A stretch of DNA of 64,000 nucleotides, from the NCBI GenBank assembly GCA_963664935.2, contig CAXXSE010000004.1:53651-117650 (forward strand), given 5' to 3'. This document shows, one piece after another, positions 5,512-42,331 of this stretch. Position 1 is the stretch's first letter; each line of letters begins with the position of its first letter. Made by a program: the position numbers and the translations under genes. Under the pieces are notes generated by a model. It was given only the letters and a program-made list of their open reading frames with translations. It had not been told where the DNA came from and ran no database searches. Origin of the DNA: Methylococcales bacterium. GTDB taxonomy: Bacteria; Pseudomonadota; Gammaproteobacteria; Methylococcales; G963664935.

Positions 5512-7218
5512 CTATTTTAATTCCTGAGGAAAATATTTAATTACACACCGCAAAGGATTGGGCGCCGCTTGCCCCAACCCGCAAATCGAGGCATCGCACA
5601 TCACCGTGGACAGTTCCTCCAATAGACCGGCATCCCACTGGTCCCGTTCCATCAAATGAACGGCTTTTGTGGTTCCCACTCGGCATGGCGTGCATTGCCC
5701 ACAGGATTCATCTTCAAAGAATCGCATGGCATTCAGGGCGGCGGTTTTGGCGCTATCTTGATTGGACAGAACAACGATTGCCGCCGAGCCGATAAAACAG
5801 CCGTGCTCATTCAGAGTATCGAAATCCAGTGGTATATCACCCATGGAAGCGGGCAGAATACCTCCCGAGGCGCCACCGGGGAAATAACCATAAAACTCAT
5901 ATCCCTCTAACATTCCGTCGCAATATTCGTCGATCAATTCTTGCATAGTGATTCCCGCCGGCGCCAAATGAACACCGGGTTTTTGCACGCGACCACTGAC
6001 CGAAAACGAACGCAGACCTTTGCGGCCATGACGCCCCTTCGAGGCAAACCAATTGGCGCCTTTTTCGACAATATCACGGATCCAATACAGTGTTTCCATA
6101 TTGTGTTCGAGGGTCGGGCGTCCGAACAAACCCACTTCCGCCACATAAGGGGGACGTAATCTTGGCATACCCCGTTTGCCTTCGATGGATTCGATCATGG
6201 CGGATTCTTCACCACAAATGTAGGCTCCAGCTCCACGCCGCAAATGAATTTCGGGTAATCCGACCACCGGTGGATTGGCTTTCAGGGCATTTAGTTCGTC
6301 GGTCAAGATTTTTCTGCAGGCGGCGTATTCATCGCGCAGATAGACATAAATCTCAGCAATGCCGACGGCCCACGCGGCGAGCAGCATGCCTTCCAAAAAA
6401 CGATGTGGATCGGTTTCCAGATAAAATCGGTCTTTGAATGTGCCCGGCTCACCTTCGTCAATGTTGACCGCCATCAAACGGGGGGCGGGATAACCTTTGA
6501 CGATCTTCCATTTTGTTCCGGCCGGAAATCCAGCTCCACCCAAACCCCTCAGTCCGGAATCTTCCATGATGGCGATCACATCGTCCGGGCTACGGTCTCC
6601 CACCATACATGAATTCAACAGTTTATATCCGCCTTGCGCTTTATAGGCCTTATATTCGGTGTACCGGGGTACGGACGCTACGATGGCGTTTCTCCGGACC
6701 GCTTGTTCGACGCTTTCAACATTCGCTTGATCGATTGGGTTTTGGCCCACAACGGCAACGGGAGCTTGCTCGCACCGACCGACGCAGGGTACCGTCGACA
6801 CTCGTACATCGTTGCCCAAACCCTTTTGCAAGGCGCCTATTAAAGACTTAGCGCCGGCTAACTCGCAGGATATTGAATCGCAAACCCGGACGGTTAACGG
6901 CGGCGGCGGGGTTCCACCGTCTTTGACAACATCAAAGTGATGATAGAACGTGGCGACTTCGTAAATTTCAGCGCTCGCCAGTTTTAATTCATGGGCCAGC
7001 GCGACGATGTGTTTGGCGGAAATATGTTGGTAAGCATCTTGAATTTTATGTAAATGCTCGATTAACAGATCTTTTCGCCGGGGTTCATCGCCCAATAACT
7101 CGCGCACTTCCTCCAACACCGCAAGGTCTATCGGCTGCCCTTTTTTAGCCCTGCGTTTGTTTTTTATTTTTGTTATATCAACTACATTCAATTCCGCCAC
7201 TCGGTCGCCCTCCGACAA
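5512..7218 (-). CDS. fdsB: NAD-dependent formate dehydrogenase beta subunit, NuoE-like N-terminal domain fused to NuoF-like NAD/FMN/4Fe-4S domain
   Basis: 568 aa. It has the NuoF motifs GLRGLGGAGFPAGTKW, YICGEESAMIESIEGKRG and ESCGQCTPCR. The N-terminal ~150 aa carry NuoE-type cysteines (VCDSISCEL ... VPCVGRCEQAP). It lies 50 nt upstream of fdsA. The start is a TTG and uncertain. Confidence 0.85.
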   Translation of the reverse strand: MSEGDRVAELNVVDITKIKNKRRAKKGQPIDLAVLEEVRELLGDEPRRKDLLIEHLHKIQDAYQHISAKHIVALAHELKLASAEIYEVATFYHHFDVVKDGGTPPPPLTVRVCDSISCELAGAKSLIGALQKGLGNDVRVSTVPCVGRCEQAPVAVVGQNPIDQANVESVEQAVRRNAIVASVPRYTEYKAYKAQGGYKLLNSCMVGDRSPDDVIAIMEDSGLRGLGGAGFPAGTKWKIVKGYPAPRLMAVNIDEGEPGTFKDRFYLETDPHRFLEGMLLAAWAVGIAEIYVYLRDEYAACRKILTDELNALKANPPVVGLPEIHLRRGAGAYICGEESAMIESIEGKRGMPRLRPPYVAEVGLFGRPTLEHNMETLYWIRDIVEKGANWFASKGRHGRKGLRSFSVSGRVQKPGVHLAPAGITMQELIDEYCDGMLEGYEFYGYFPGGASGGILPASMGDIPLDFDTLNEHGCFIGSAAIVVLSNQDSAKTAALNAMRFFEDESCGQCTPCRVGTTKAVHLMERDQWDAGLLEELSTVMCDASICGLGQAAPNPLRCVIKYFPQELK

Positions 7219-7243
7219 ATTTCACTTCGGCCTGATTTACCAA

Positions 7244-7408
7244 AACCTGAATCCGTAACTTCACTACGGCACAAGGTACAAGCTCTTGATGCCACAGCGG
7301 TCAAAAAAATACCCACTTAACCTATGGGTGAAGCTAAGATTTTTTTGACCCCCTGTGAAACCAATATCTTGAACCCTGCTATCCGCATTGAAGTCACGGA
7401 TTCAGGTT
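7244..7408. repeat. ~165-bp palindromic (MITE/REP-like) element in the fdsB-lysR intergenic region
   Basis: The outer arms are AACCTGAATCCGTAACTTCA and TGAAGTCACGGATTCAGGTT. The inner arms are GGTCAAAAAAAT and ATTTTTTTGACC. A related copy lies at 55081-55215. Confidence 0.65.
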
Positions 7409-7544
7409 AAAATCAAAAAAATATATACCAATATAACGTAGTATTGCTCTATGATTCAAATCATCATTTTTGGTGATGGAGTGTTACTTGCCACATGAAA
7501 CCTACTCCTTCCAATTTTCCGCCAGAATCAATCCGGTCTAGCTT

Positions 7545-8433
7545 TTGAACCCCAACCATTTATTAACATTTTCCATCGTCGCACGGCTCAAAAGTATCAC
7601 CCGCGCCGCGCAACATCTGCATATTGGCCAACCCGCGGTATCCGGACAACTCAAACTGCTGCAGGACACGGTGGGGGAACCCTTGTATTACCGGGAAGGG
7701 CACCGGATTATTCTCAGTCCGGCGGGCGAAGGATTACTCGAATACGCCGACCGTCTTGCCGAAGATTTACAACAGGCCGGGGAGTACGTGAGCTGTCTTC
7801 AAACCCTTGATTCCGGTGTTCTTAGAATTGGTTCGACCATGACCATCGCCAGCTATTACCTTCCCCAGTATTTAGTTCAATTACAAACTCAGCATCCGGG
7901 AATCCAGGTTTTATGACTACCGGCAACACTCGGGAAATTATTCAAAAACAATCGGATTTGGATCTTGGGTTTATAGAAGGCCCATGGAAAATTATGATAT
8001 TCCAACCAATTATCGGGTGTTACCTTGGAAAAACGATGAAATAGTTCTTGTCGTCCACAAAGACCACAAGCTTGCCAAACAATATAGAAAAGCCGTCCCA
8101 CTCAAGGTCTTTGCCGAACATCAAGTCATTTGGCGGGAAGCCGAGTCCGGTGCGCGCCAAGTTGTGGAAACCGCATTGGCCGAAGCCGGTATCGTGGCCC
8201 CGGTCAACATAGAAGTAACCGGTGTTGCCGGAATCAAGGAATCCGTTAGGGCCGGACTTGGGATTAGTTTCGCCTCTTTTCAGGCCCTGAAAAATGAAAG
8301 CTCCGAACTCGTCGCACGCCGTATAAACCCGCCAGGAGGATTGATTTGGCACTTAAATATCATCGCACCTAAAGAAAGCATTCAGTCCCATATCGCCGGG
8401 TCGTTTATTAAAGTTTGTATGGGCGAAGTCTGA
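7545..8433 (+). pseudogene. LysR-family transcriptional regulator, two frameshifts
   Basis: The HTH is ITRAAQHLHIGQPAVSGQLKLLQ. The reading continues GIQV|MTTGNTREIIQKQSDLDLGFIEGP|ENYDIPTNYRVLPWKNDEIVLVVHKDH across three frames. The shifts are near the T-run at 7910-7913 and near 7980. It is divergent from the fds operon. Confidence 0.8.
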
Positions 8434-8520
8434 ACATCGAATATAATGTCCTGTCTCAATGGTAACTATTTGCGATTCTAGGATATCATGCAAAGATTGC
8501 CCTTTATTAGGAGGACCAAG

Positions 8521-9327
8521 ATGCATTTTTTGAAAAATATTATAAAGCTGGCTTTTCTTTCCGGTGCGTTTCTAACGACGGCGAACGCAGTCCAAGCGGC
8601 GGAATCCACAATCTGGTTGAACGACATTAAAAAAGAATTTTATGGTGGCCGCGAAATAAAGGAGTCCAGCGACATCATAGAACTTACAGCCCCTTACCGG
8701 GCGGAAGATTCAGCGTTGGTGCCCATCAAGATTACAGTTAAGATTCCCCAAACGAAAGCGCGATATATCAAAACCATCACCCTTTTTATCGACAAGAATC
8801 CCATCCCATTTTCGGGTAAATTTCACTTTACGCCGGAAAGTGGCCGCGCGGATCTGGCCATGCGGGTACGGGTTAACGCCTATTCAAACGTTCGCGCTGT
8901 CGCCGAACTGAACGACGGTAGCCTGTACATGCACAAAAAATTCGTAAAAGCCGCCGGTGGCTGTTCGGCACCGCTGGGCGCCGATCTGGAAGCTGCGATG
9001 AAGCGTATGGGTAAAATGAAATTTCGTATTGCTAACAATTTAAACCCAGGCGACCCTGCTTCAGCCCAATTGCTTATTAGTCATCCGAACATAAGTGGCC
9101 TGCAAATGAACCAGCTGACCCGTTTGTACACGCCAGCGCATTACGTCGAAGACATGAAAATTACTTTTAACAACCGGCTCGTTCTCAAAGCCAAGACGGA
9201 TATTGCAATCAGCCAGGACCCGAACTTTCGGTTTTATTTCGTGCCGAAAAAATCGGGTGTGTTAAAAGCAGAAATAAAAGACAACAAGGGCAACAGTTTT
9301 TCGCAAACTTACGAGGTTAAGATCTAA
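8521..9327 (+). CDS. Fused SoxY-SoxZ-like sulfur-carrier protein (quinoprotein-dehydrogenase-associated SoxYZ-like type), secreted
   Basis: It has a signal peptide (MHFLKNIIKLAFLSGAFLTTANAVQA), a carrier motif KAAGGCSAP and then a SoxZ-like beta domain. A GGAGGA Shine-Dalgarno sequence precedes the ATG at 8521, so this start is preferred over the ORF-track start at 8488. Confidence 0.65.
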   Translation: MHFLKNIIKLAFLSGAFLTTANAVQAAESTIWLNDIKKEFYGGREIKESSDIIELTAPYRAEDSALVPIKITVKIPQTKARYIKTITLFIDKNPIPFSGKFHFTPESGRADLAMRVRVNAYSNVRAVAELNDGSLYMHKKFVKAAGGCSAPLGADLEAAMKRMGKMKFRIANNLNPGDPASAQLLISHPNISGLQMNQLTRLYTPAHYVEDMKITFNNRLVLKAKTDIAISQDPNFRFYFVPKKSGVLKAEIKDNKGNSFSQTYEVKI

Positions 9328-9329
9328 TA

Positions 9330-9716
9330 CTATTTGAGATTGCACGCCTTTGCCGCCAAGCTTTTTGCTTCCGTCAATCGTTTGCGTAAATCTCGGGCTC
9401 TTGGAGGATCGCGGAACACCGACCCCCGTTCCCCGGGAAGGCTCCGAAATCGGGCATAGGTCTGGGCTTGGGTATATTCGGCTTCGGTCAACATTGTTGC
9501 AATCTTGTCTACGCTGCATACACAAGGGTAAAAATACTGATAACTTTGCCCGCCACGTTGGTTCATACACTCCAGAACATACTCGACACGAGTCTGGGTG
9601 GAAAAATCGTTCACGGGTTTTTGTTCAGGGGTTTCAGGGGTTGAAGCACAACCGGACAGAACGAACAGCCATGGAATAATCCAAAAATTAAATTTTCTGA
9701 GGTGTATTTTGCTCAT
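9330..9716 (-). CDS. Hypothetical lipoprotein
   Basis: It has a lipobox (LFVLSGC). The ORF-track start at 9743 is possible, but M10 at 9716 gives a canonical signal peptide. No family was recognised. Confidence 0.5.
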   Translation of the reverse strand: MSKIHLRKFNFWIIPWLFVLSGCASTPETPEQKPVNDFSTQTRVEYVLECMNQRGGQSYQYFYPCVCSVDKIATMLTEAEYTQAQTYARFRSLPGERGSVFRDPPRARDLRKRLTEAKSLAAKACNLK

Positions 9717-31678: not shown

Positions 31679-32017
31679 TTATATTCCAATTATTTGGTTT
31701 AACCCATCTACGATTTCCGCCAACTGCTCAGGTTCAACAGTCCCTAGCTTCCTGCCGATTCTTTCTACGGATAATGTGCGTATTTGGCTTATCTTTACCC
31801 AGGATGGTTTCTGTAATTGGTTGGATTCGAGGGGATAGGTAAGAGGAAAACTAGCTTTTTGAGGCCGGCTCGTTAAAGCCAAGGCAATAACAGTACCAGA
31901 GCGTTTGTTGAAAATATCATGGCTTAGAATAAGCACCGGCCTATGCCCTGCCTGCTCATGGGCACGAGTTGGACTGAGCCCCGCCCAGCGAATATCTCCC
32001 CTTAATATTCGGGCCAT
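31679..32017 (-). CDS. mazF: MazF/PemK-family type II toxin (endoribonuclease)
   Basis: It has GDIRWAGLSPTRAHEQAGHRPVLILS ... SWVKISQIRTLS. It overlaps the upstream antitoxin gene. Confidence 0.85.
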   Translation of the reverse strand: MARILRGDIRWAGLSPTRAHEQAGHRPVLILSHDIFNKRSGTVIALALTSRPQKASFPLTYPLESNQLQKPSWVKISQIRTLSVERIGRKLGTVEPEQLAEIVDGLNQIIGI

Positions 32018-32244
32018 TCAGATAAATCCTCCGTTAAGCCTTTCTCCGCTAAAGCCTTTTCATACTCCGGATCCAATTTTGCGCATTCCTGAGCCAGGAG
32101 ACTTTGATTCAACCGACTCAGTTTTTCTTTTACCGCCTCCTGAATTGCACGGCTTCGATTAGGGAACATGCGCTTTTTCACCAATGCGTCAACCTCGGCT
32201 AACATGCTGGATTCTAATGTGATTGCTATTTTGCTACTGCTCAT
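32002..32244 (-). CDS. Ribbon-helix-helix (CopG-like) antitoxin partner of MazF
   Basis: The N-terminal KIAITLESSMLAEVDALVKKRMFPNRSRAIQEAV is RHH-like. It overlaps mazF by 16 nt. Confidence 0.75.
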   Translation of the reverse strand: MSSSKIAITLESSMLAEVDALVKKRMFPNRSRAIQEAVKEKLSRLNQSLLAQECAKLDPEYEKALAEKGLTEDLSEWPEY

Positions 32245-32746: not shown

Positions 32747-33030
32747 ATGACCACCAATATTCTAATTGTTGACGATCATCCGGTTTTTCGACGTGGCTTA
32801 TACGAAATCATCAATGATAGTGTTGATTTTAAGGTAGTCGCCGAAACCGGAGATGGTCAATAAACGCAACATGCGTTGCGCGACATCCCGCCGGACATTG
32901 CCATACTCGATATCGCCATGCCGGGACTAAGCGGCTTGGATGTTCTCGCCAAAACCAATCACTGGGCGCAACGACCAATCTTCGTCATGTTGATGATGTC
33001 CGATGACCAAGCTTATTTGCGCAGAGCCAA
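32747..33030 (+). pseudogene. NarL/LuxR-type response-regulator receiver domain, in-frame TAA and 3' truncation
   Basis: It reads MTTNILIVDDHPVFRRGLYEIINDSVDFKVVAETGDGQ*TQHALRDIPPDIAILDIAMPGLSGLDVL. The TAA is at 32861-32863. No output domain follows. Confidence 0.75.
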
Positions 33031-33501
33031 GGTAATATTCTGCTCAATCGCTTGATGTTTAGCGGAGGTTAATAGCTGATCATCGATGTTGATTGTTGTT
33101 CGCATGATTGATTTTGGAATTACATGGGTTGATATATTTATAGTCTAACAGGTTAGTAATAAGTATGATAAATAAATATATGGTCTGATCATTTTTGTTT
33201 TAGAAATAACCACCAGTGTTTTTGCGATGTGCAATCGGTCATGTTCCCCGGAATGACGGGCCATTTTCAGTGGAATAGGCACAAGCCACTGAAACTTGGT
33301 TAATTTTACGCACCTCAGCTCACAAATTCCGAATATTGTTGGAATGTTAAAACTAACTCTGGCATCCCCGCCACGAAGTAATTCTGGATAAAACAAAGGA
33401 TGGCTGATTGCTGCGTTTTAGCAAGACCTGACCCCTCTGGTTTTCCTTATCCAGAGCATTCGAGTCACTGACCCAATCGGTTTCATTAAAGAGGTACTGG
33501 C

Positions 33502-33642
33502 ATGATTACCGACACAGAGATAAAAACTAAAGGCTTTCAGGTACTTGCCCAGCATCTAGGCGATATCGAAGCCGAACGATTTGTCGCACTAATTCAAAGG
33601 GAAGCTTTCGATTACACGCAGTGGTGGCAGAGTCGAGTATAG
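33502..33642 (+). CDS. 46-aa small protein of the FDYTQW type (antitoxin-like; function unknown)
   Basis: It reads MITDTEIKTKGFQVLAQHLGDIEAERFVALIQREAFDYTQWWQSRV. The stop abuts the IS91-like repeat that starts at 33643, so the 3' end may be altered. Confidence 0.4.
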   Translation: MITDTEIKTKGFQVLAQHLGDIEAERFVALIQREAFDYTQWWQSRV

Positions 33643-34200
33643 GAAGAATAAACCACCTTTTTTTTCAAATGAGAAAGTATCAATGGCGCAATGAATTGTC
33701 AATCACGATCTAAAATCGGAATTTCTAGCTCTTTGTGAAGGCTTTTTCCCTGGTCAATGCAAAGATTTTGGCAAATTGAGTCGTTTTAGAAGGCAAAGGC
33801 CATAGAGGATGGTCGGATCAAGACTGAACCGGATTGAAGTGGTTGTGGATTTGGAATTAGGCGATTCCAGATAGACGGAATGCCTGGGGCGGTGAACGAG
33901 GCGGCGCCCTGGTGGATAAACCAAGATGGGCAAGGATCTTAGCGATCACCGTGGGTTCTTCGATGGCAGCGATGATTTTTAGTTCACCCCCACAGTGAGG
34001 ACAGTGTTCGATGTCGGTATCGAACACCCGTTTAAGCAAACGAGCCCAGCTAATGCGGGTAGCAGGCGGTAGCTGAGGCACCTCGCCATGTTTATCTGTC
34101 GTGTTATTGGCGTTGACTGCTTCGCCTGGAATGATTTCGGAACGGTGTTTGGCGTTGGGCGCAAGTATGCCGCGTGGGATACGGAAGAACAAAGACAGAC
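33643..34200 (-). mobile_element. Truncated second copy of the IS91-family element (3' flank plus C-terminal ~110 codons of the transposase)
   Basis: It is colinear with nt 1-~560 of the window. It encodes GILAPNAKHRSEIIPGE ... RISWARLLKRVFDTDIEHCPHCGGELKIIAAIEEPTVIAKILAHLGL. The homology ends near 34165-34205, where G+C-rich DNA begins. Confidence 0.8.
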
Positions 34201-34357
34201 GGGGCTGCTCGCTTGGTGTCATTGTGACGTCTCCTGTGCCTTGGCGGGTCATCCGCGCAAGGTCGCGCAGTCTAGCATCGGGCCGAATTCGGAGTCGAGG
34301 GAAACTCCGCGACGACTGCGAGCCAGCCCGGTGGCGGGGCCTGCACACGGCTGTTGA

Positions 34358-35602
34358 TCAGGTGCGATCGGCTTCGCTCGTTGGAACCCGCTTCGTCGCT
34401 CGATACGCGCGGTATGCGTGCGCAAAGGACTGGCTTTCGCCGTCGAGTTCGGAGTTCACGAGCTTGAACGCGGTCCGAATCGCCTTCGCCACCCGCAGGA
34501 TTCCCGCGTCTTCGATCCTCTCGATGCGGCCCGTGCTCGGCAGGTAGAACATCGCGTGTCCCGCCCACTCCGGAACGTCGATGCCCAGGCCTCTCAGTGT
34601 CGAGGCTACGTGCGGCCAGTTCTCGTCGAGGTCACTACGGTTGGACACCGAACCGATCAGGTACCCGCTCTTGAGTTCGGGAGGTACGAAGATCACCGTC
34701 TTCTTCCACAGCGCTGGGCTGCCGTGCAGGGCTGCGAGTTCCTCGACGAGTCCATCGGTGTCCGAGGGGATGACGACGATGCCCTTGGCGTGTTTGGCGA
34801 ATCGATCGAATATCGCGCGCCAGTTCTCGTCGGAGGTCTTGATCTGGATCGCGTTGGTGGCGTCGGCGGCGTGGTTGAAATCGAATCGTCCGATGGCGAC
34901 GACGGAGCCCAGCTTCGTCAGGGCGGTGGTGAGCCGCGGGATGATGGGCAATCCGGGGACCGACACCATTCCACCGTCCTTATCGAACGTCATTCCCTCG
35001 GGGGCATCGAGATTGAATCGGTTTCCGAACGAGCGGAGTAGCAGGAAGTAGGGGCGGTGGCGAAGTCGGGCGTAGGATCGAGCCACGAACTCCTTGAGCG
35101 GTCGACGCGCGAAGAGCAGCCCGCGGAAGAGGGCCATGAACGTGGCGAAGAGCGCGAGGATCGGCAGGATTCCGGCCAGCCAAACAGGGAGCCATTCGGG
35201 TGGCCAGAAGCTGTCGTCCAGGCCTCTGAAGAAGGTGATGATCTGTCCCATCACGAGGCAGGTGAGCGCGAGCGTGAACAACAAGGGTACGTTGGCGATG
35301 AACTCGCGGACGTTGTCACCGAAGTAGGCGAACAGTCCGTAGAAGAGCATGCTCGAGCAGAGCGCTGTGCCGCCGAAGAAGGTGAACACGAGCCACCAGT
35401 CCAGCGTGTACCGGTCTCCGAGGTCGGCGCCCCAGACGGCGAAGACGGCCATCAGGCTGAGGCCGAGAGAGGTGAGCGCGAGTAGGTCCTTTGGAAGGGT
35501 TCGCTCTTCTTCGTTGAAGTAGCTCCAGATTCCGTAGGCGAACCCGCCGACTGAGGAGGCACCGAGGAACACGATGGCGAGTATGCTCTCCCACGAACTC
35601 AT
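34358..35602 (-). CDS. Membrane protein: ~5 N-terminal TM helices plus ~230-aa cytoplasmic Rossmann-like domain (LOG/SLOG/nucleoside-deoxyribosyltransferase-like signature; unassigned)
   Basis: 414 aa. It is the only long ORF in the block with a coherent architecture. The TM helices include ILAIVFLGASSVGGFAYGIW, LLALTSLGLSLMAVFAVWGA, WWLVFTFFGGTALCSSMLFYGLFAYF, VPLLFTLALTCLVMGQIITFF and WLAGILPILALFATFMALF. The C-terminal domain has YFLLLRSFGN, GSVVAIG, WRAIFDRFAKHAKGIVVIPSDTDGLVEELAAL. Confidence 0.6.
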   Translation of the reverse strand: MSSWESILAIVFLGASSVGGFAYGIWSYFNEEERTLPKDLLALTSLGLSLMAVFAVWGADLGDRYTLDWWLVFTFFGGTALCSSMLFYGLFAYFGDNVREFIANVPLLFTLALTCLVMGQIITFFRGLDDSFWPPEWLPVWLAGILPILALFATFMALFRGLLFARRPLKEFVARSYARLRHRPYFLLLRSFGNRFNLDAPEGMTFDKDGGMVSVPGLPIIPRLTTALTKLGSVVAIGRFDFNHAADATNAIQIKTSDENWRAIFDRFAKHAKGIVVIPSDTDGLVEELAALHGSPALWKKTVIFVPPELKSGYLIGSVSNRSDLDENWPHVASTLRGLGIDVPEWAGHAMFYLPSTGRIERIEDAGILRVAKAIRTAFKLVNSELDGESQSFAHAYRAYRATKRVPTSEADRT

Positions 35603-35767
35603 CGCTGAGGTGATGCGGGTCTTGCGGGCGGGAATCCCGTCGGCCTGGACGAGATGGGCATGGAGAGCGAGGGGCTCGTTGCGTGCAATCTGGGCATCTC
35701 GTCAGTTGATGGCGGGGCAGGGCGAAACCATGGATCGCCGTCGGGCCGCCGGAGTCGACGATGGAGC

Positions 35768-36135
35768 TCAGTTGGCATCGCGGCGCCCGGGCGGCCGCTT
35801 GGGTCGCCGGAAGAATTGGGTTTCTGGCGAGAGATCGCTCGCGCCATCGCGTGCGGCGAGGATCTCGAGCACGAGCTCCTCGATGCCTTCCGAGACGATG
35901 CGCCACGCGCTATCGCGATTCGGCCACGTGTCAACGGATCTAGCATCCTTTGGCAACGCTTGCAGTTCCCCGAACTGCGCGCGACTCCAGTTCGTGTCGC
36001 GGATGATCACAGGTACCACGCGCGCGGATCTGGCGGTCGTGCCACTGGGAGATCAGACCGCTGCGCTCGAGGATCTTGAGGTGCGTCTCCAGGTCGTTGT
36101 CAGTCATGAATCCTCCAAAAAGAACCCGCTCCGTC
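35768..36135 (-). pseudogene. TIR-domain gene remnant (internal deletion/frameshift)
   Basis: The N-part is RVLFGGFMTDNDLETHLKILERSGLISQWHDRQIRA. It is joined out of frame, at a CGCGCGCG tract near 36020, to the C-part VVPVIIRDTNWSRAQFGELQALPKDARSVDTWPNRDSAWRIVSEGI. Both parts match the bacterial TIR_2 pattern, but the central ~60 aa are missing. Confidence 0.5.
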
Positions 36136-36814
36136 GAGACGGGTCGTGTATCGATCTTATTGGCCTTGGCCGCGATGACAATGTGCGTGCCGTTCAATCA
36201 ACAGCGCAGGACCAAAGGAATCGCCACCGCTCGACCTGGAGCATCGGTGGCTCGATTGCTAGAAAATTTGATTCCGGGGGCGGGTTCATGAGGTGGGCGG
36301 AGCCGGGGATGGAGGGGGTTTATTGGTTAAGTCACCAACTGTTATGGTTCGAAGGTTTTTTACCGATTCTTGTGAAAAACGTTGTATTCGATCAATTGTT
36401 GGTTCTGGTGTTTCAAGTTTATTAAGAAAAATCAATGCAGCCATAAAAACACCTATGGCAAGCAATGCGTCTATTTCGAATAACTGACTTTTACGATTAC
36501 GTCTCAAACTACTTACCTCTTTTTAGATAATTTACAGCATATTCGTATTTAAAACTGTTGGTATAGAAATGAGAAAAAGATTATCGTTATTCTGTTGTTT
36601 TTTGCACTGTTTGAAATACTACGTACTGAGATGCGTTTCCGCCATTAGAAACATATACAGTTCCTGGACTCCGTACACTTGTCACCTTTTTCCCGTTGGA
36701 GTCCATAAGATCAACTGGATTGTAATTTATTAGATCGGTTGGGGCAAATAAACCTAGGGGTCTACCATAGAATTTTAGAATCAAATCCAACATCAAAATG
36801 TTTTTTATTTGATG

Positions 36815-37332: not shown

Positions 37333-38237
37333 TTGACCTTCCCCCATTGGATGGAGAAGCCATTCATCAATTCATTGATCCGGGTCTTTGTGTGAAGGTC
37401 TGTACTGGCTGTCAGGTGGGTATATTTGGCGGTGGTTAAGAGGCTCCTATGGCCGAGGATTTTTTTGCACCTCAAGTAAGTCAACACCCGATTCAATCAG
37501 ATGGGTGGCGTAACTGTGGCGTAGGCTGTGTGGGGTAATCTTTTTTTTATCCCACAGGCGTCCACAAGCTTTTTCAGGGTCGTCTGGACGCCGCCACGAT
37601 CCAGCGGTGTGGTCGCCGTATGACTGCCTTTCAGACCGCCTTTGCGATTCGGGAAGAGCAATACCGGATTGCGATGCACCGACCAGAAGCGACGGAGTAT
37701 ATCCACCGTGGCGTCGGGCAGCGGCACCAAGCGATCCTGATTGCCCTTGGCATCGCGGATATGCACCCGCTGACGCTCAGCATCGATATCACCGACCTCG
37801 AGGCGAAGTCCTTCACCGAGACGCAAGCCGAGACTGTAGACGGTAAAAAAGAACACCCGGTAGCTCAACTTGTGGGCCGCCATAAAGAGACGCGACGCTT
37901 CCTTAATGGTAACGATATCCGGTAAACGTGTGGTCCGCGGTGGCTTAATCAAATCAACGTTCACCCAGGGCTTATGGAGGACATGCTGATAGAAGAATTT
38001 GAGGCCATACAGGTCGAGCTTAACCGCGCTCCAGGAATGCGTACTGAGAAGATTCGAGAAATAATCCGTCAACTGCTGCTCTGAAAGATCATAAACTTGA
38101 TGCTCAAAGTACAAGCCAATGCGACGAATGCCGCGCGAATAGGCCTCTATCGTCTTAGGTTGAAGACCTTTAAGCCTAAGGTGTTGCAGTAACGTTTGAT
38201 AATCGTACTTGAAATTTCTATTGAAGGGTGTTGTCAT
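37329..38237 (-). pseudogene. Tyrosine recombinase (phage-integrase family) of the IS91-type element, two homopolymer frameshifts
   Basis: ORF 37497-38237 plus shifted frames give [42 protein letters not shown]. The shifts are in the T8 run at 37541-37548 and the T7 run at 37460-37466 (+ strand). Confidence 0.8.
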
Positions 38238-38242
38238 GACAC

Positions 38243-38296
38243 TGTAACCTCATATTCGTGGTTGAATACCCCTCGGTGCGAGGGGTTGAGGTTACA
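38243..38296. repeat. Nested hairpin immediately upstream of the integrase gene (possible IS91-type terminus or regulatory structure)
   Basis: TGTAACCTCA ... CCCCTCG gtg CGAGGGG ... TGAGGTTACA: a 10-bp outer stem and a 7-bp inner stem. Confidence 0.5.
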
Positions 38297-38529
38297 TTTT
38301 ATATTTAATCAGAGCCCGAGGTCTTTTCTCCGCGATAGCGGCTTCGTCCAACCAGCGGGTCAACCCGGGCGGCGAACACGGTGGCGGTTTTAGATTCGGT
38401 GTTTTTTCGATACCACTCATTTCTCCAAACCCCGTAGTTTAATTCGCCGCCAGGTTACCCTTAACGTTAGACCTTTTCCCTTGAACGATGAGATAATCTC
38501 CAGCGCTAACCCCATAGTGGTGCTATACG

Positions 38530-38748
38530 ATGACAAATTTGCTTGAAAAAGCTATGACTGAAGTGAAAAATCTTTCTGATTCCGAGCAGGACGCTATAGC
38601 GGCACTTATCCTCGAAGAAATAAAAGATGAAGCGCTTTGGGATAAAGCGTTTGAAGAATCTCAAGATGCTTTATCTAAGCTTGCCGCAGAGGCGATAGCC
38701 GAGGATAGAGCAGGAAAGACCAAAGACCTTGATCCTGAAAAACTGTGA
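38530..38748 (+). CDS. Type II antitoxin (partner of the RelE/ParE-like toxin)
   Basis: 72 aa, acidic. It overlaps the downstream toxin gene by 4 nt (ATGA-type coupling). Confidence 0.6.
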   Translation: MTNLLEKAMTEVKNLSDSEQDAIAALILEEIKDEALWDKAFEESQDALSKLAAEAIAEDRAGKTKDLDPEKL

Positions 38749-39005
38749 AGTCGCGAACAACGGGACAATTTCGGAAAGCATCCGCCAATTTACCCAAAGA
38801 AGTTCAAGACCAAGCGCGCGAAGCATATCGGAAATTTAATCAAAATCCTTGGCACCCCAGCTTACGCTTCAAACAAGTTCATACGAAATCACCAGTTTAC
38901 TCGGCTCGTATAAGTCAAGGTTATCGAGCGGTGGGCCAACGAAATGAAGATAGCATAGTCTGGTTCTGGATTGGCTCGCACGGCGATTATGACAAACTAT
39001 TATAG
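38745..39005 (+). CDS. RelE/ParE-superfamily type II toxin
   Basis: 86 aa with PWHPSLRFKQV ... YSARISQGYRAVGQRNEDSIVWFWIGSHGDYDKLL, typical of this toxin family. Confidence 0.65.
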   Translation: MKSRTTGQFRKASANLPKEVQDQAREAYRKFNQNPWHPSLRFKQVHTKSPVYSARISQGYRAVGQRNEDSIVWFWIGSHGDYDKLL

Positions 39006-39350
39006 CAGCTATAGTGAGAGGTCTAACGAATAAGGTTAGATTGTGTGAGTGAAGCGAACCACAATCTGAACCGTTTGTTGGACAAGCCCGTCGGTTATGA
39101 TCCAGTTTCTCTATGAAAATATCTTTTTGAGTCTCGCTGCCTCTCAAGGCTTACGGTGACCCGCAAACCTCAAAATTCAGCGAATACGGTTGCTATTGCA
39201 GCAACGCGTGGCAAGAATGCCTTCTAGTGAGGCCAGTTCCGCCTATTTTACCCCTTTTTTAGACAAGCGGGTTCCTCAGCGCTATACACTGAATTTAAAT
39301 CCATCCGCAGGGGTGATAGCGTTTACATGATCAATGGCTCCAGCGTATGA

Positions 39351-39894
39351 TCATGTCGGTACCGCCACCTTCCATGGGAACAGCGGAGGAACCCGTGTTT
39401 TGATAATCTTCATCGGACCACCGCAACACCGACAGGTCAGTGTGGGTCGTTTTCTAAGCCATGCCAATGCTCGGCCTAGATCCAGTTTGAGTAAATACTG
39501 AAGCAACTGTATCGAGTGTTTGCTATTGGGGTGCAAAAAACCGAAATTCCTAGCCCGTCTAAACCTTTTGGGTAGGGCATGCTGGAGGATCAACCACAAA
39601 AATTGCGGGCCGGAAACGGTCTTAAGCTCAATCTGCTGGGTCTTGCTATTTGGGTAGCGAAAAGTCACTCGACCCGCCTCACAAGCGACAATATCCTTTT
39701 CCTGGATCACGCCGCGATAGAGGTAACGACCCAGATAGATCAACGCCTTCTCACCGGAGCCGACCGATTTGCAATCCACGACCCACTCTTCAGGGTGTCT
39801 AGTCGGTAGCGCAAGTCCCGCCTGGGTCATTTCCTCAAGCATCTAAGCGCGAAATACTTTGGCTAGTGCCTGATGGTTGAACAGGTAACCGCTT
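39351..39894 (-). pseudogene. C-terminal part of an IS91-family transposase (integrase-associated subgroup), separated from its middle part by IS21; in-frame TAG
   Basis: It reads YLFNHQALAKVFRA*MLEEMTQAGL ... RYLYRGVI ... FGFLHPNSK ... CRCCGGPMKII. The TAG is at 39843-39845. Confidence 0.8.
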
Positions 39895-40070
39895 ATCTAA
39901 TGTCAATTACTCTGGCCGGTCGGCGTAAATTATCTTGGCCGGTTTTTAAGTGTTGTTATTTATCTCATGTTTTTTCCCTCTGGTAGGTTTTGTTGCCGGG
40001 GTTGGCGTAACGGAAGGAGCCCGTAGGGCGACTGGAGTTACGCCAACCCCGGCGGGCGCCGTTGAAGGTG

Positions 40071-40823
40071 CTATTTTTTGGCCATGGCGGCTTTTTTTCG
40101 GTAACTTTGTCCGTGTAGTTCGATAATTGTCGCGTGATGGACCAGGCGGTCAATTGCAGCCACAGGCATCATGCTGTCCGCGAAAATCTGATCCCAGTCA
40201 CTAAACGTTTGGTTGGCCGTGATGATAAGACTTCCCGTTTCATAGCGGTGGGCAATAAACTCAAACAATACCTGGGTCTCTCCATCACTGCGTTTAACGT
40301 AACCCAGATCATCCAGAATGATGAGTCTATACTTATCGAGTTTGTGTAGGTGACTTTCCAGGCAATACCCGTCTCTGGCGCGTTGCAGCTCTTGCACCAA
40401 TGCGGTTGCTGGGTAATGCCGTACACGCACGCCTTGTTCTATCAGTCGTGCTCCGATAGCACAGGCCGGGTGCGTTTTGCCCAGGCCACTCGCGCCAAAC
40501 AACAAAAGGTTCCATGCCTGTGATATCCAGTCAACGTTGTTAGACAGTGCCTCGATTTGTGCACGGTTTATGCCTTTATCCTGGTCAAAGTCGAAGCTGG
40601 GCAGCGTTTTCCCAGCGGGCAGTTTTGATTCTTTGTGGTAGCCGGCCAATCGCCGGGAATGACGATGGGTGATTTCCAGTTCACACAATGCACTGAGAAA
40701 TTGCTCATGGCTCCATTTCCGTGCTTTGTCACTGCTGGCAAGCTCCGCCCAGTGGCGGCCAATGGTTGCAAGCCTCAGCTCTTTGAGCATGACCGGTAAG
40801 CTTGTACAGGTAGACATTAGCAT
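40071..40823 (-). CDS. istB: IS21 helper ATPase IstB
   Basis: Walker A is LFGASGLGKTH and Walker B is LIILDDLGY. It overlaps the istA 3' end. Confidence 0.9.
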   Translation of the reverse strand: MLMSTCTSLPVMLKELRLATIGRHWAELASSDKARKWSHEQFLSALCELEITHRHSRRLAGYHKESKLPAGKTLPSFDFDQDKGINRAQIEALSNNVDWISQAWNLLLFGASGLGKTHPACAIGARLIEQGVRVRHYPATALVQELQRARDGYCLESHLHKLDKYRLIILDDLGYVKRSDGETQVLFEFIAHRYETGSLIITANQTFSDWDQIFADSMMPVAAIDRLVHHATIIELHGQSYRKKAAMAKK

Positions 40824-42331
40824 GCTCCCGAAGAGCTGAGCAGCGCCTCATAGTCGTCCAGGGCGTGTTGTTCGACGTCAACGCTGGGGTGTGGCTGCGC
40901 TTTTCCCTCAAATCGTTTTTCTAGCGTGCACACGCCTGGCAAGTCGTCCGGCTCCGCTCGTTTCATCAGGTATTCACCGAGTGTCTTCTCGCAATCAGCT
41001 CGTGCGGCCAATGCCAGTATACCCACCATCCATTTACAGGCCGCTCGTGGTTCCATGCGTTCATCGGCGATTCGCCACAGTTTCCGGTAATTGTCGTTTG
41101 GCAGAAGGTCATCGCGCAACATGGAGCACCGAAAGGCTTGTGGCTTTTTCGCCAAGTTGCCGATCAGATGACGATAGTCGATCTGACGGGCTCGCTCACG
41201 GCCTTTGGGATGATGATTGCGCGGCAACTCCAGTACCGCACTGGACCCTAAATAACCTTTGAGATGATCATCATAAAGATGAATGCGCAACCTTGAACCG
41301 ACCAGTCGGGAGGGCACCGTATAAAGCACTCTCTTGACCTCGATAGTGCCGGTGCTGCTGACAGCGGCAATGCACTCGGTGTAATCGGCACTGCGATGAC
41401 AGGGCAGTGCGCCAAGAGATGCCCGTTCCACCTTGATCCGGTCCTGGTGGCGTCGGTTGATGCCATCCGTTACCGTGTTCAGAAACGTCTGATAGTCGCT
41501 GAGGGTATCAAAATCACGTGACCCACGAAGCAATAAGGCTTGTTCGATACGCCACTTGAGATGCCCGTGTGGTGACTCGACGGAGTCATTCTCGTGGCCA
41601 CGTCCTCGGTTATTTCGCGTCGCTTTCATGCCATAGTTCTGGCACAGATCGGCGTACCGTGATGTGATGTCCTTTTTCTCGTCTTGATCCAGGTTCTTGA
41701 AGGCCGCGGATAGGCTGTCCGTTCGGTGTTCCTTCGGGCTGCCACCCAGGCGCCACAGCGCTTCTTGTAATCCCGTCGCCAGGGCCGTGAAGCTTTCTCC
41801 GCCCAGTACCGCCATCGCGTAACACCATCCGGAAAAGGCCAACCTGAAATGGTAAATCAAGTGTTTGAGTGGCTTGTTGCCTAGAGTGATCGCCTCACTC
41901 TTTAGCTGAGTGAAATCAGACAAGCCCTGCAGACCCGGTGGGTGTTCTTGCAGAAAAACAACGTCCTGTTCCTTGCCGTATTTGGCCTTCCACAGCTGCA
42001 CACGCCTTTGCAACGTGCGTTTCTTGGAGTCAGGATAGCGCTCTGGATCACGTTCTTGCAGCATCTCAAGCAACGTTGTGGCCGATAGATTGGGTGCGTT
42101 CTTGAGTTTGCCGACGAGTTCGCTGTCCCAAACCTCGGTAAAAGGGTCATCGCGCGTACGCCAATGTCGCATTGGCCGCTTGCCTACCTGCAGCTGTCGT
42201 TTATCGATCCGCCGACCGCTACGCACAGATATCCCTGCAACCGCACTCGATGTCTCCTGTGTCTTGTTTTCGTTTCTCGTTTTCATGTACAAATTAACCT
42301 GTTGTTCGTTGATTCTTTTTCCCGGCATCAC
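40817..42331 (-). CDS. istA: IS21 transposase IstA
   Basis: 504 aa with an N-terminal HTH and a DDE core (SDFTQL ... HRTDSLSAA ... HENDSVESPHG). Confidence 0.9.
   Translation of the reverse strand: MMPGKRINEQQVNLYMKTRNENKTQETSSAVAGISVRSGRRIDKRQLQVGKRPMRHWRTRDDPFTEVWDSELVGKLKNAPNLSATTLLEMLQERDPERYPDSKKRTLQRRVQLWKAKYGKEQDVVFLQEHPPGLQGLSDFTQLKSEAITLGNKPLKHLIYHFRLAFSGWCYAMAVLGGESFTALATGLQEALWRLGGSPKEHRTDSLSAAFKNLDQDEKKDITSRYADLCQNYGMKATRNNRGRGHENDSVESPHGHLKWRIEQALLLRGSRDFDTLSDYQTFLNTVTDGINRRHQDRIKVERASLGALPCHRSADYTECIAAVSSTGTIEVKRVLYTVPSRLVGSRLRIHLYDDHLKGYLGSSAVLELPRNHHPKGRERARQIDYRHLIGNLAKKPQAFRCSMLRDDLLPNDNYRKLWRIADERMEPRAACKWMVGILALAARADCEKTLGEYLMKRAEPDDLPGVCTLEKRFEGKAQPHPSVDVEQHALDDYEALLSSSGAC

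Follow-up and report, generated by a model that had tools for sequence, protein, structure and literature searches.

What was, or is, the role of a short G+C-rich block of DNA in a Methylococcales bacterium that carries a broken TIR gene directly upstream of an intact gene for a membrane protein? The block lies in a 64,000-nucleotide (nt) stretch of contig CAXXSE010000004.1 (assembly GCA_963664935.2, positions 53,651 to 117,650 of the forward strand), which we refer to as the window. A preliminary description of this DNA, made from its letters alone, had tentatively read the two genes as the wreck of a defence pair in which a TIR protein signals to a transmembrane (TM) sensor and effector, with motifs in the latter that recall LOG, SLOG and other Rossmannoid folds. 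We find that the part of this proposal concerning an inactive, decayed import stands, whereas a SLOG assignment was left unconfirmed by Pfam, PDB and Foldseek searches. The locus no longer functions as a TIR system: a TIR signal cannot arise in this genome, and the gene for the 414-amino-acid (aa) membrane protein is an orphan. The locus is best regarded as a wreck without a function of its own to study, and its value is as a pointer to a widespread and unannotated protein family. The features on which the argument rests, with the evidence that defines them, are the following.

33857..36325, minus strand: imported G+C-rich block, comprising a transposase stump, a membrane-protein gene and a TIR pseudogene (G+C profiles).
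36022..36131, minus strand: what is left of the N-terminal part of the TIR pseudogene, ERVLFGGFMTDNDLETHLKILERSGLISQWHDRQIR, read in another frame than the C-terminal part (PADLOC ThsB1 model, phmmer to P0151).
36019..36026, minus strand: CGCGCGCG tract, at which codons are deleted from the TIR pseudogene and its frame shifts (sequence and three-frame translation).
35768..36022, minus strand: C-terminal fragment of the TIR pseudogene, running from RVVPVIIRDTNWSRAQFGELQALPKDARSVDTWPNRDSAWRIVSEGIEEL to the stop codon (PADLOC ThsB1 TIR-like model, phmmer to P0151).
35603..35767, minus strand: 165-nt spacer that separates the TIR pseudogene from the 414-aa gene (sequence).
34358..35602, minus strand: intact gene encoding the 414-aa membrane protein, whose family lacks annotation (open reading frame; homologue P0001 end to end).
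35123..35602, minus strand: N-terminal membrane module of that protein, residues 1-160, with 5 TM helices (hydropathy and AlphaFold).
34361..35062, minus strand: its cytoplasmic alpha/beta (Rossmann-like) domain, residues 181-414 (alignments A3 and A4, domain-only AlphaFold model).
33857..34174, minus strand: 3' stump of a gene for a rolling-circle (Y2) transposase of the ISCR/IS91 family, within an open reading frame of 163 aa at 33857-34348 (NCBIfam NF052416).

The composition of the block sets it apart from everything around it. When G+C is measured in windows of 300 nt it runs at 0.59-0.66 across approximately 34050-36300, with both flanks at 0.35-0.50, and at a resolution of 1 kb the block gives values of 0.613 and 0.632 while all remaining windows of the 64 kb fall within 0.40-0.55. 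Overall, G+C is 62.6% for 34200-36300 as against 47.0% for the window minus the block. The third codon positions of the 414-aa gene reach a G+C of 0.81, compared with 0.43-0.51 in two host genes, which indicates that the DNA is foreign and has not yet drifted to host composition. The block is thus recently imported high-G+C DNA, and the claim of foreign origin made from the first inspection of the sequence is borne out by both measures. The host itself is a gammaproteobacterium as judged from its RapA, which shares at most 64% identity with RapA of Thiogranum and of uncultured Gammaproteobacteria and Thiotrichaceae. Its left border was set at the stop codon of the transposase stump (33857), G+C in 50-nt windows climbing from about 0.40 to at least 0.50 at around 33800, and its right border lies where G+C drops to 0.34 past about 36350. 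Within the resulting length of about 2.45 kb, the order of genes along the minus strand is TIR pseudogene, 414-aa gene, transposase stump.

The connection of the upstream gene to TIR proteins can be traced through both of its surviving pieces, which are held by open reading frames at 35940-36197 (N-terminal piece) and 35768-36019 (C-terminal piece), both on the minus strand. The PADLOC ThsB TIR-like model matches the N-terminal piece over profile positions 16-48 (E = 4.9e-6) and the C-terminal piece over positions 94-142 (E = 1.3e-9), and phmmer aligns the two to the intact TIR_2 protein P0151 with E = 1e-6 and E = 2.8e-22, respectively. P0151 and a second protein, P0152, both with Pfam TIR and TIR_2 domains, are the nearest intact proteins found. 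The anticipated agreement of the segments with TIR profiles was accordingly recovered with the ThsB model and by way of a TIR_2 protein; a Pfam run directly on either short fragment returned nothing above threshold. Alignment to P0151 leaves its residues 24-73 (50 aa) without a counterpart in the pseudogene, so that the central loss proposed in the preliminary description is upheld and its estimated size of about 60 aa is not. The missing stretch includes ADIILLLVSADFIASEYCYEKEM, the core strand and the catalytic-Glu helix, and also SADFIASEYCYEKE, which bears the catalytic Glu itself. The join sits in the CGCGCGCG tract, a CG repeat, and the frame is shifted there, just as had been described; in addition, the first strand of the N-terminal fragment is degenerate relative to its usual form, xFISYSHxD. 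Judged from these alignments, the gene is a genuine TIR gene and is dead, its catalytic Glu and its central strands and helices not lying in one open frame. A scan of the 165-nt spacer that follows it detected no sigma-70-like promoter.

The downstream gene is a different matter. Its closest homologue, P0001 (406 aa), aligns with the 414-aa protein from first to last residue at 48% identity. The AlphaFold model of the protein has five long N-terminal helices (residues 4-29, 38-58, 66-93, 105-128 and 137-180), the fifth of which extends beyond the membrane into the cytoplasm, and a hydropathy scan marks four TM segments (7-25, 40-58, 107-125 and 140-158). The initial claim of an intact gene for a protein with about five TM helices and a soluble domain is therefore upheld by the homologue and by the model, with hydropathy giving four, and so is the claim of two co-oriented minus-strand genes separated by 165 nt. 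The predicted structure has a pLDDT of 81.8 for the full protein and is confident for the domain alone (pLDDT 90.5, pTM 0.88). The segment that follows TM5, RGLLFARRPLKEFVARSYARLRHR, is strongly basic, and by the positive-inside rule this suggests that the alpha/beta domain is cytoplasmic. We therefore infer a topology with the N-terminus outside and the C-terminus inside. The motifs YFLLLRSF, GSVVAIG and W-x12-GIVVIPSDTDGLVEEL that had been picked out in the preliminary description are all found in the protein. Within the TM-coding part of the gene, three imperfect 19-nt direct repeats (CGAGGCAGGTGAGCGCGAG-like) occur at 35254-35482 with spacings of 120 and 90 nt.

Sequence searches of the 414-aa protein against Pfam, NCBIfam, PADLOC and the PDB gave nothing significant, and a word-indexed protein search returned only one or two relatives each time. 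It was an exhaustive HMMER search that exposed the family to which the protein belongs, with at least 210 representative clusters at the 50% identity level (E <= 1e-3). Its members are found in Bacteroidota, Acidobacteriota, Planctomycetota, Actinomycetota, Alphaproteobacteria, Nitrospira and others, and their layout is nearly universal: one to six N-terminal TM helices (typically two) are followed within about 30 residues by a domain of about 220 aa. The motifs RPxxLLLRSF, GxxVAIG, DxxWxxxFxxxAxxAxxIxxIPxxTxGxxxE, KTxxxMPP and LPxYxxxGM characterize the family. In an alignment of 70 sequences W261 and E288 are invariant and L189, R190, P279, P307, W329, P344 and G350 nearly so, while in a 34-sequence alignment of the domain L189, R190, W261 and E288 are all invariant. 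Pfam searches with 71 full-length and 34 domain sequences identified no family shared by the domain. What is new here is thus a large membrane-protein family without a Pfam, NCBIfam or PADLOC model and without a close structural neighbour in the PDB. The fusion partners of its longer members are uninformative, save for P0064, in which the family domain is fused to a signal peptidase S26 domain. A separate branch of the family (P0077, P0079, P0086, P0124 and P0126) has two TM helices and the domain followed by 4-9 extra C-terminal TM helices that have no Pfam match. Closer relatives and a donor proved elusive: GTDB genomes gave no match when searched with the single 414-aa protein and one distant locus, L007, when searched with a three-sequence alignment, and no match was obtained in two scans of JGI metagenomes, in a blastn search of the block against plasmids or in an exact search with a 38-nt DNA pattern.

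If the membrane protein once responded to a TIR-derived signal, its cytoplasmic domain would be the sensor. Foldseek searches with full-length and domain models against the PDB and BFVD returned nothing below E = 1e-3. The best 50 PDB matches were to CoaB, PfkB-type kinases, HAD-type phosphatases and similar proteins, with TM-scores of at most 0.46, and included no LOG, SLOG, DprA, nucleoside 2-deoxyribosyltransferase (NDT) or TIR entry. The CoaB and PfkB ribokinase-like folds lead this list and align over about 225-240 columns, most of the domain, with a probability of up to 0.94, but they do so at E ~1e-2, TM-scores of 0.39-0.46, a root-mean-square deviation of about 10 A and an identity of about 10%; in these models the resemblance is of a generic Rossmann-like kind only. 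Profile searches were similarly unrevealing, as Pfam at E <= 10 on the 34 domain sequences gave nothing consistent and a PDB profile search with the family yielded no LOG or SLOG match.

A more specific resemblance to LOG proteins emerged from direct profile comparison. With hhalign, the best local alignment of the family profile fell on residues 240-270 of Escherichia coli PpnN (score 26.0, P = 0.0055) and on residues 98-122 (…SDAFIALPGGYGTLEELLE…) of Arabidopsis LOG3, the sequence of which was checked as PDB 2a33 (score 18.0, P = 0.043). In both cases the family motif IxxIPxxTxGxxxE falls on the PGGxGTxxE motif of the LOG protein in the same register, even though PpnN and LOG3 are too distant from one another for mutual detection by phmmer. 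Against a background of 329 unrelated open reading frames, in which ordinary Rossmann proteins scored about 20-22 and the maximum was 22.3, the PpnN score lies above all 329 and the LOG3 score below the maximum. We regard this resemblance, which is reproducible but weak, as suggestive rather than conclusive. By eye, the likeness to LOG and SLOG domains extends to the succession of strand 1, helix, strand 2, strand 3, helix, strand 4, a Glu-bearing loop with its helix, and strand 5, and the invariant E288 of the family sits in the motif that is in register with PGGxGTxxE. The family differs in that its consensus is IPxxTxGxxxE rather than PGGxGT and in that it lacks the Gly-rich loops after strands 1 and 2, having LRSF and VAIG in their place. 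Of the LOG/SLOG/NDT resemblance suggested in the preliminary description, the LOG/SLOG-like motif is thus partly supported, and an assignment by fold or profile is not supported. Membership in the NDT group found no support, hhalign of alignment A4 against Lactobacillus leichmannii NDT (sequence checked as PDB 1f8x) giving a probability of 0.2%; the sole other hint of NDT was a match of E = 0.88 to the NDT-like effector of retron Ec86. The hhalign comparison of the family profile with a DUF4071/TIR-like protein was negative as well. The idea that the domain is itself TIR-like, with LLLRSF corresponding to FISY and IPxxxxGxxxE to SxxxxxWCxxE, was dropped for want of any TIR among the 50 best Foldseek matches.

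A functional connection between the family and TIR proteins should be visible in the neighbourhoods of other members, and we sampled 25 distinct family loci, that of the window included. Same-strand upstream TIR genes are present in three of the 25, namely the window, L001 and L012, or in three of 11 when only members with at least four TM helices are counted, and the three TIRs represent unrelated subtypes. L012 (1701-7314) is a compact conflict locus. Beyond a CHAT gene on the opposite strand and an unannotated 242-aa gene, its forward strand carries a TIR gene, then a pYEATS-TIR fusion and finally the family member P0009, and among intact loci it offers the best opportunity to test a link between TIR and the family. 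In L001 the co-oriented genes are, in order, a TIR_2 gene (279 aa), an IS3 insertion, a DUF4231/SLATT gene, a 138-aa TM gene and P0001, the last of which lies 2.6 kb downstream of the TIR_2 gene, and the whole occupies an island of low G+C that is flanked by an amidohydrolase gene and the enolase gene. Conflict-related genes of other types also occur beside the family. In the Nitrospira metagenome-assembled genome of L025 (3744-10082) the family gene has a CHAT-TPR-S gene just upstream and, on its downstream side, one of the DUF4071/MAP3K_TRAF_bd-TPR-S type. An ankyrin-repeat gene comes after P0005, and in L004 (393-3794, minus strand) the gene beside P0002, on the opposite strand, encodes a 1133-aa class III nucleotide cyclase-AAA_16-TPR protein (cyclase-STAND), possibly an alternative signal generator. 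The family protein of L025 has in addition a zinc-ribbon-like segment and a C-terminal TM helix.

From a rough estimate, chance alone would produce 0.2-1.2 cases of TIR adjacency in 25 loci of TIR-rich genomes. The three cases observed exceed this, and the association is thus probably real at the level of a shared "conflict neighbourhood". It nevertheless falls far short of the near-obligate pairing that is seen with established Thoeris effectors, and the expectation that family genes would be routinely preceded by a TIR gene is not sustained, co-oriented TIRs being present in some loci and not seen in the large majority.

In what way might the two genes of the block have worked together? A survey of Thoeris systems has described 29 putative types in which TIR genes are paired with diverse effectors containing TM or unknown domains (Yirmiya et al., bioRxiv 10.64898/2025.12.03.692087). 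Those with TM effectors include type II, with TM-Macro proteins, and type V, with the three-TM ThsF/DUF2270 protein; in type VI the DUF6650 effector occurs with or without TM helices, and type VII combines TIR with SLATT (bioRxiv 10.64898/2025.12.03.692087). The window pair shares this general design. Its TIR gene lies directly upstream of, co-oriented with and 165 nt from a gene for a multi-TM protein with a cytoplasmic alpha/beta domain, homologous membrane proteins are accompanied by unrelated TIR subtypes in three loci, and the family motif bears a weak resemblance to the PGGxGTxxE of LOG and SLOG. It differs in that the domain, whether searched in the 414-aa protein or in 34 or 71 of its relatives, matches no SLOG, Macro, DUF2270, DUF6650 or SLATT model of Pfam or PADLOC, in that most family members have no TIR neighbour, and in that the window TIR is dead. 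The survey also includes a "SLOG and 4TM" class, which gave no defence in E. coli (bioRxiv 10.64898/2025.12.03.692087); the window pair can be likened to this class by its description.

By analogy with these systems, we tentatively favor the view that the TIR and 414-aa genes were once partners in a Thoeris-like cassette, in which the membrane protein was an effector that senses nucleotides, although we would place its probability somewhat under an even chance. According to this model, the donor would have possessed the two genes as a conflict cassette in which the TIR enzyme makes a nucleotide-derived signal from NAD+. The signal would then be bound by the cytoplasmic domain in a pocket around R190, W261 and E288, the last of these within the motif resembling the PGGxGTxxE of LOG and SLOG, and ligand binding would switch the five-TM module so as to cause membrane damage. 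In the family as a whole, the coupling to TIR would be facultative, with most members standing alone.

Several results weigh against this proposal. No TIR gene was seen at 22 of the 25 family loci, with the proviso that TIRs in L013-L026 were sought by phmmer with a few queries and among the best 25 rows of a batch Pfam scan, which weak TIRs could escape; seven TIR queries gave no clear phmmer match in the remaining loci, the marginal cases being one in L019 (E = 0.002) and a 75-aa fragment in L025. The genes around the family at these 22 loci differ from one locus to the next and are often metabolic (sulfatases, enoyl-CoA hydratase, PhoD, ADH and others), and a Pfam and PADLOC scan of 95 neighbour open reading frames from 15 genome loci revealed no recurrent partner among the matches listed. 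Neither P0151 nor P0152, the closest intact proteins found for the TIR remnant, is encoded beside a gene of the family. No PADLOC model matches the 414-aa protein, tblastn with this protein against plasmids and phages and with a typical two-TM member against plasmids found none, no fold-level link of the domain to known signal-sensor domains was found, and the LOG-motif alignments are 25-31 residues long with hhalign probabilities of at most 7%. Furthermore, TIR, CHAT and TPR genes abound in the genomes that bear the family (those of Planctomycetota, Acidobacteriota, Actinomycetota and Nitrospira among them), which raises the rate at which adjacency arises by chance. The L001 case may likewise be less telling than it appears, as its TIR is more economically paired with SLATT and P0001 may merely share the island. 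At 6563-9396 of that locus, the TIR_2 and DUF4231/SLATT genes have the published layout of type VII Thoeris, parted by the IS3 element (HTH_Tnp_1 and rve, 7558-8711), and give the impression of a defence pair into which a transposon has inserted.

The alternative that best withstands the evidence draws on many of these same points. The two genes may simply be chance neighbours, the 414-aa protein being a stand-alone, membrane-anchored enzyme or binding protein unrelated to conflict and the TIR adjacency an accident of which fragment was captured. We take this to be a serious possibility, if one that on balance we doubt. It would readily explain the many loci with unrelated, often metabolic neighbours in place of a TIR gene or any conserved partner, the failure of defence models to match, the spread of the family over many phyla as a single gene and the fact that the L001 TIR already has a SLATT partner. 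It accounts less well for three independent co-oriented adjacencies involving unrelated TIR subtypes, which exceed the number expected by chance, or for the CHAT/TPR-S and cyclase-STAND neighbours at other loci.

Alternatively, the family may consist of autonomous defence or toxin genes, that is, self-contained membrane effectors of defence islands that need no TIR signal and reside beside TIR genes because both belong to islands. The variety of conflict-related neighbours (TIR, SLATT, CHAT, TPR-S, pYEATS, cyclase-STAND and ankyrin), with no fixed partner, is what such a gene might be expected to show, as is the solitary occurrence of many members. We nevertheless consider this explanation improbable. 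Most of the solitary members lie among housekeeping genes rather than in recognisable islands, the tblastn searches did not find the family on plasmids or phages, and the conserved, pocket-like motifs of the cytoplasmic domain point to a ligand or substrate. Finally, the notion that the 414-aa frame is no real gene and merely one of the open frames common in G+C-rich DNA, which the presence of other long ones in the block (283 aa at 35574-36425 and 207 aa at 34418-35041, both on the plus strand) might encourage, can safely be dismissed, refuted as it is by the end-to-end homologue and the at least 210 related clusters, and contradicted further by a third-position G+C that exceeds that of positions 1 and 2, as for a coding frame, and by the confident structure prediction.

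The Thoeris-like interpretation can be carried a step further. The family as a whole might represent unrecognised, TIR-signal-gated membrane effectors of the Thoeris type, equipped with a very divergent LOG/SLOG-like sensor that uses Arg, Trp and Glu in place of Gly-rich loops and possibly serving class III cyclases as well. We view this extension as unlikely at present. Were it true, it would define a new Thoeris type and a new architecture for ligand sensing, mainly in Planctomycetota, Acidobacteriota, Actinomycetota and Nitrospira. If the TIR link is functional, the family would add a new effector or sensor module to the catalogue of TIR signalling, with the L012 operon as a ready test case, and if it is not, these membrane-anchored, Rossmann-like proteins, as yet uncharacterised, nonetheless merit the definition of a family. 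That the 414-aa gene of the window has remained intact may reflect just the recency of its import.

The transposase stump provides a likely explanation for how the two genes reached their present location. Its match to the NCBIfam model NF052416 (ISCR_clade_Ia) has E = 3.6e-16 and places protein residues 59-142 on positions 397-487 of the 509-position profile, and the score of 58.8 bits against a full-length cut-off of 925 marks it as a fragment. What survives is the last ~110 of about 509 residues, including the CxxC...C zinc-ribbon region, so that the truncated IS91 copy noted beside the block when the sequence was first inspected is indeed a stump of the IS91/ISCR type. Elements of the IS91/ISCR group co-mobilise DNA that lies upstream of their transposase gene when rolling-circle replication runs past terIS. 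The window conforms to this pattern in having a stump like that of ISCR clade Ia directly downstream of foreign cargo and on the same strand, and the position of the two cargo genes, upstream of the transposase and hence on the side that such elements mobilise, leads us to read them as captured cargo. It departs from the pattern in that only about 110 of the last codons are kept, in that a repeat scan of the block identified neither oriIS nor terIS ends, and in that the composition of the stump (54% G+C, third-position G+C 0.53) is unlike that of the cargo (63%). We suspect that both genes were captured by an ISCR/IS91 element and that two deletions followed, one that would have taken most of the transposase gene and another that would have gutted the TIR gene.

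A few minor features of the block and its surroundings complete the description. Besides its genes, the block contains antisense open reading frames of 283, 207, 156 and 141 aa (34418-36425, plus strand); such long frames most likely reflect nothing more than how seldom stop codons occur in DNA of high G+C. A scan for terminator-like sites across 33600-36800 detected none. The region around the block, from 31.6 to 42.3 kb, is a junkyard of mobile elements. To the left, an intact-looking type II toxin-antitoxin pair occupies 31679-32244 (minus strand), where a PemK/MazF toxin gene (112 aa, Pfam E = 2.7e-30) overlaps that of an upstream ribbon-helix-helix antitoxin (80 aa), and beside the block lies a 59-aa remnant of a response-regulator receiver domain (32876-33055, plus strand) that covers profile positions 42-88 of 111. 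To the right is a second, unrelated mobile-element cluster at 37497-42331 (minus strand). It includes a tyrosine-recombinase (integrase) gene of 246 aa, the Pfam match of which spans just positions 6-130 of the 172-position catalytic-domain profile, a ParE-like toxin pair at 38530-39005 on the plus strand, and an IS91 Y2_Tnp fragment at 39351-39842 that is unrelated to the transposase stump of the block. The same cluster contains an IS21 element, composed of IstB (40071-40823) and an IstA-like gene (40817-42331), and a 28-nt inverted repeat is found at 39995-40053.

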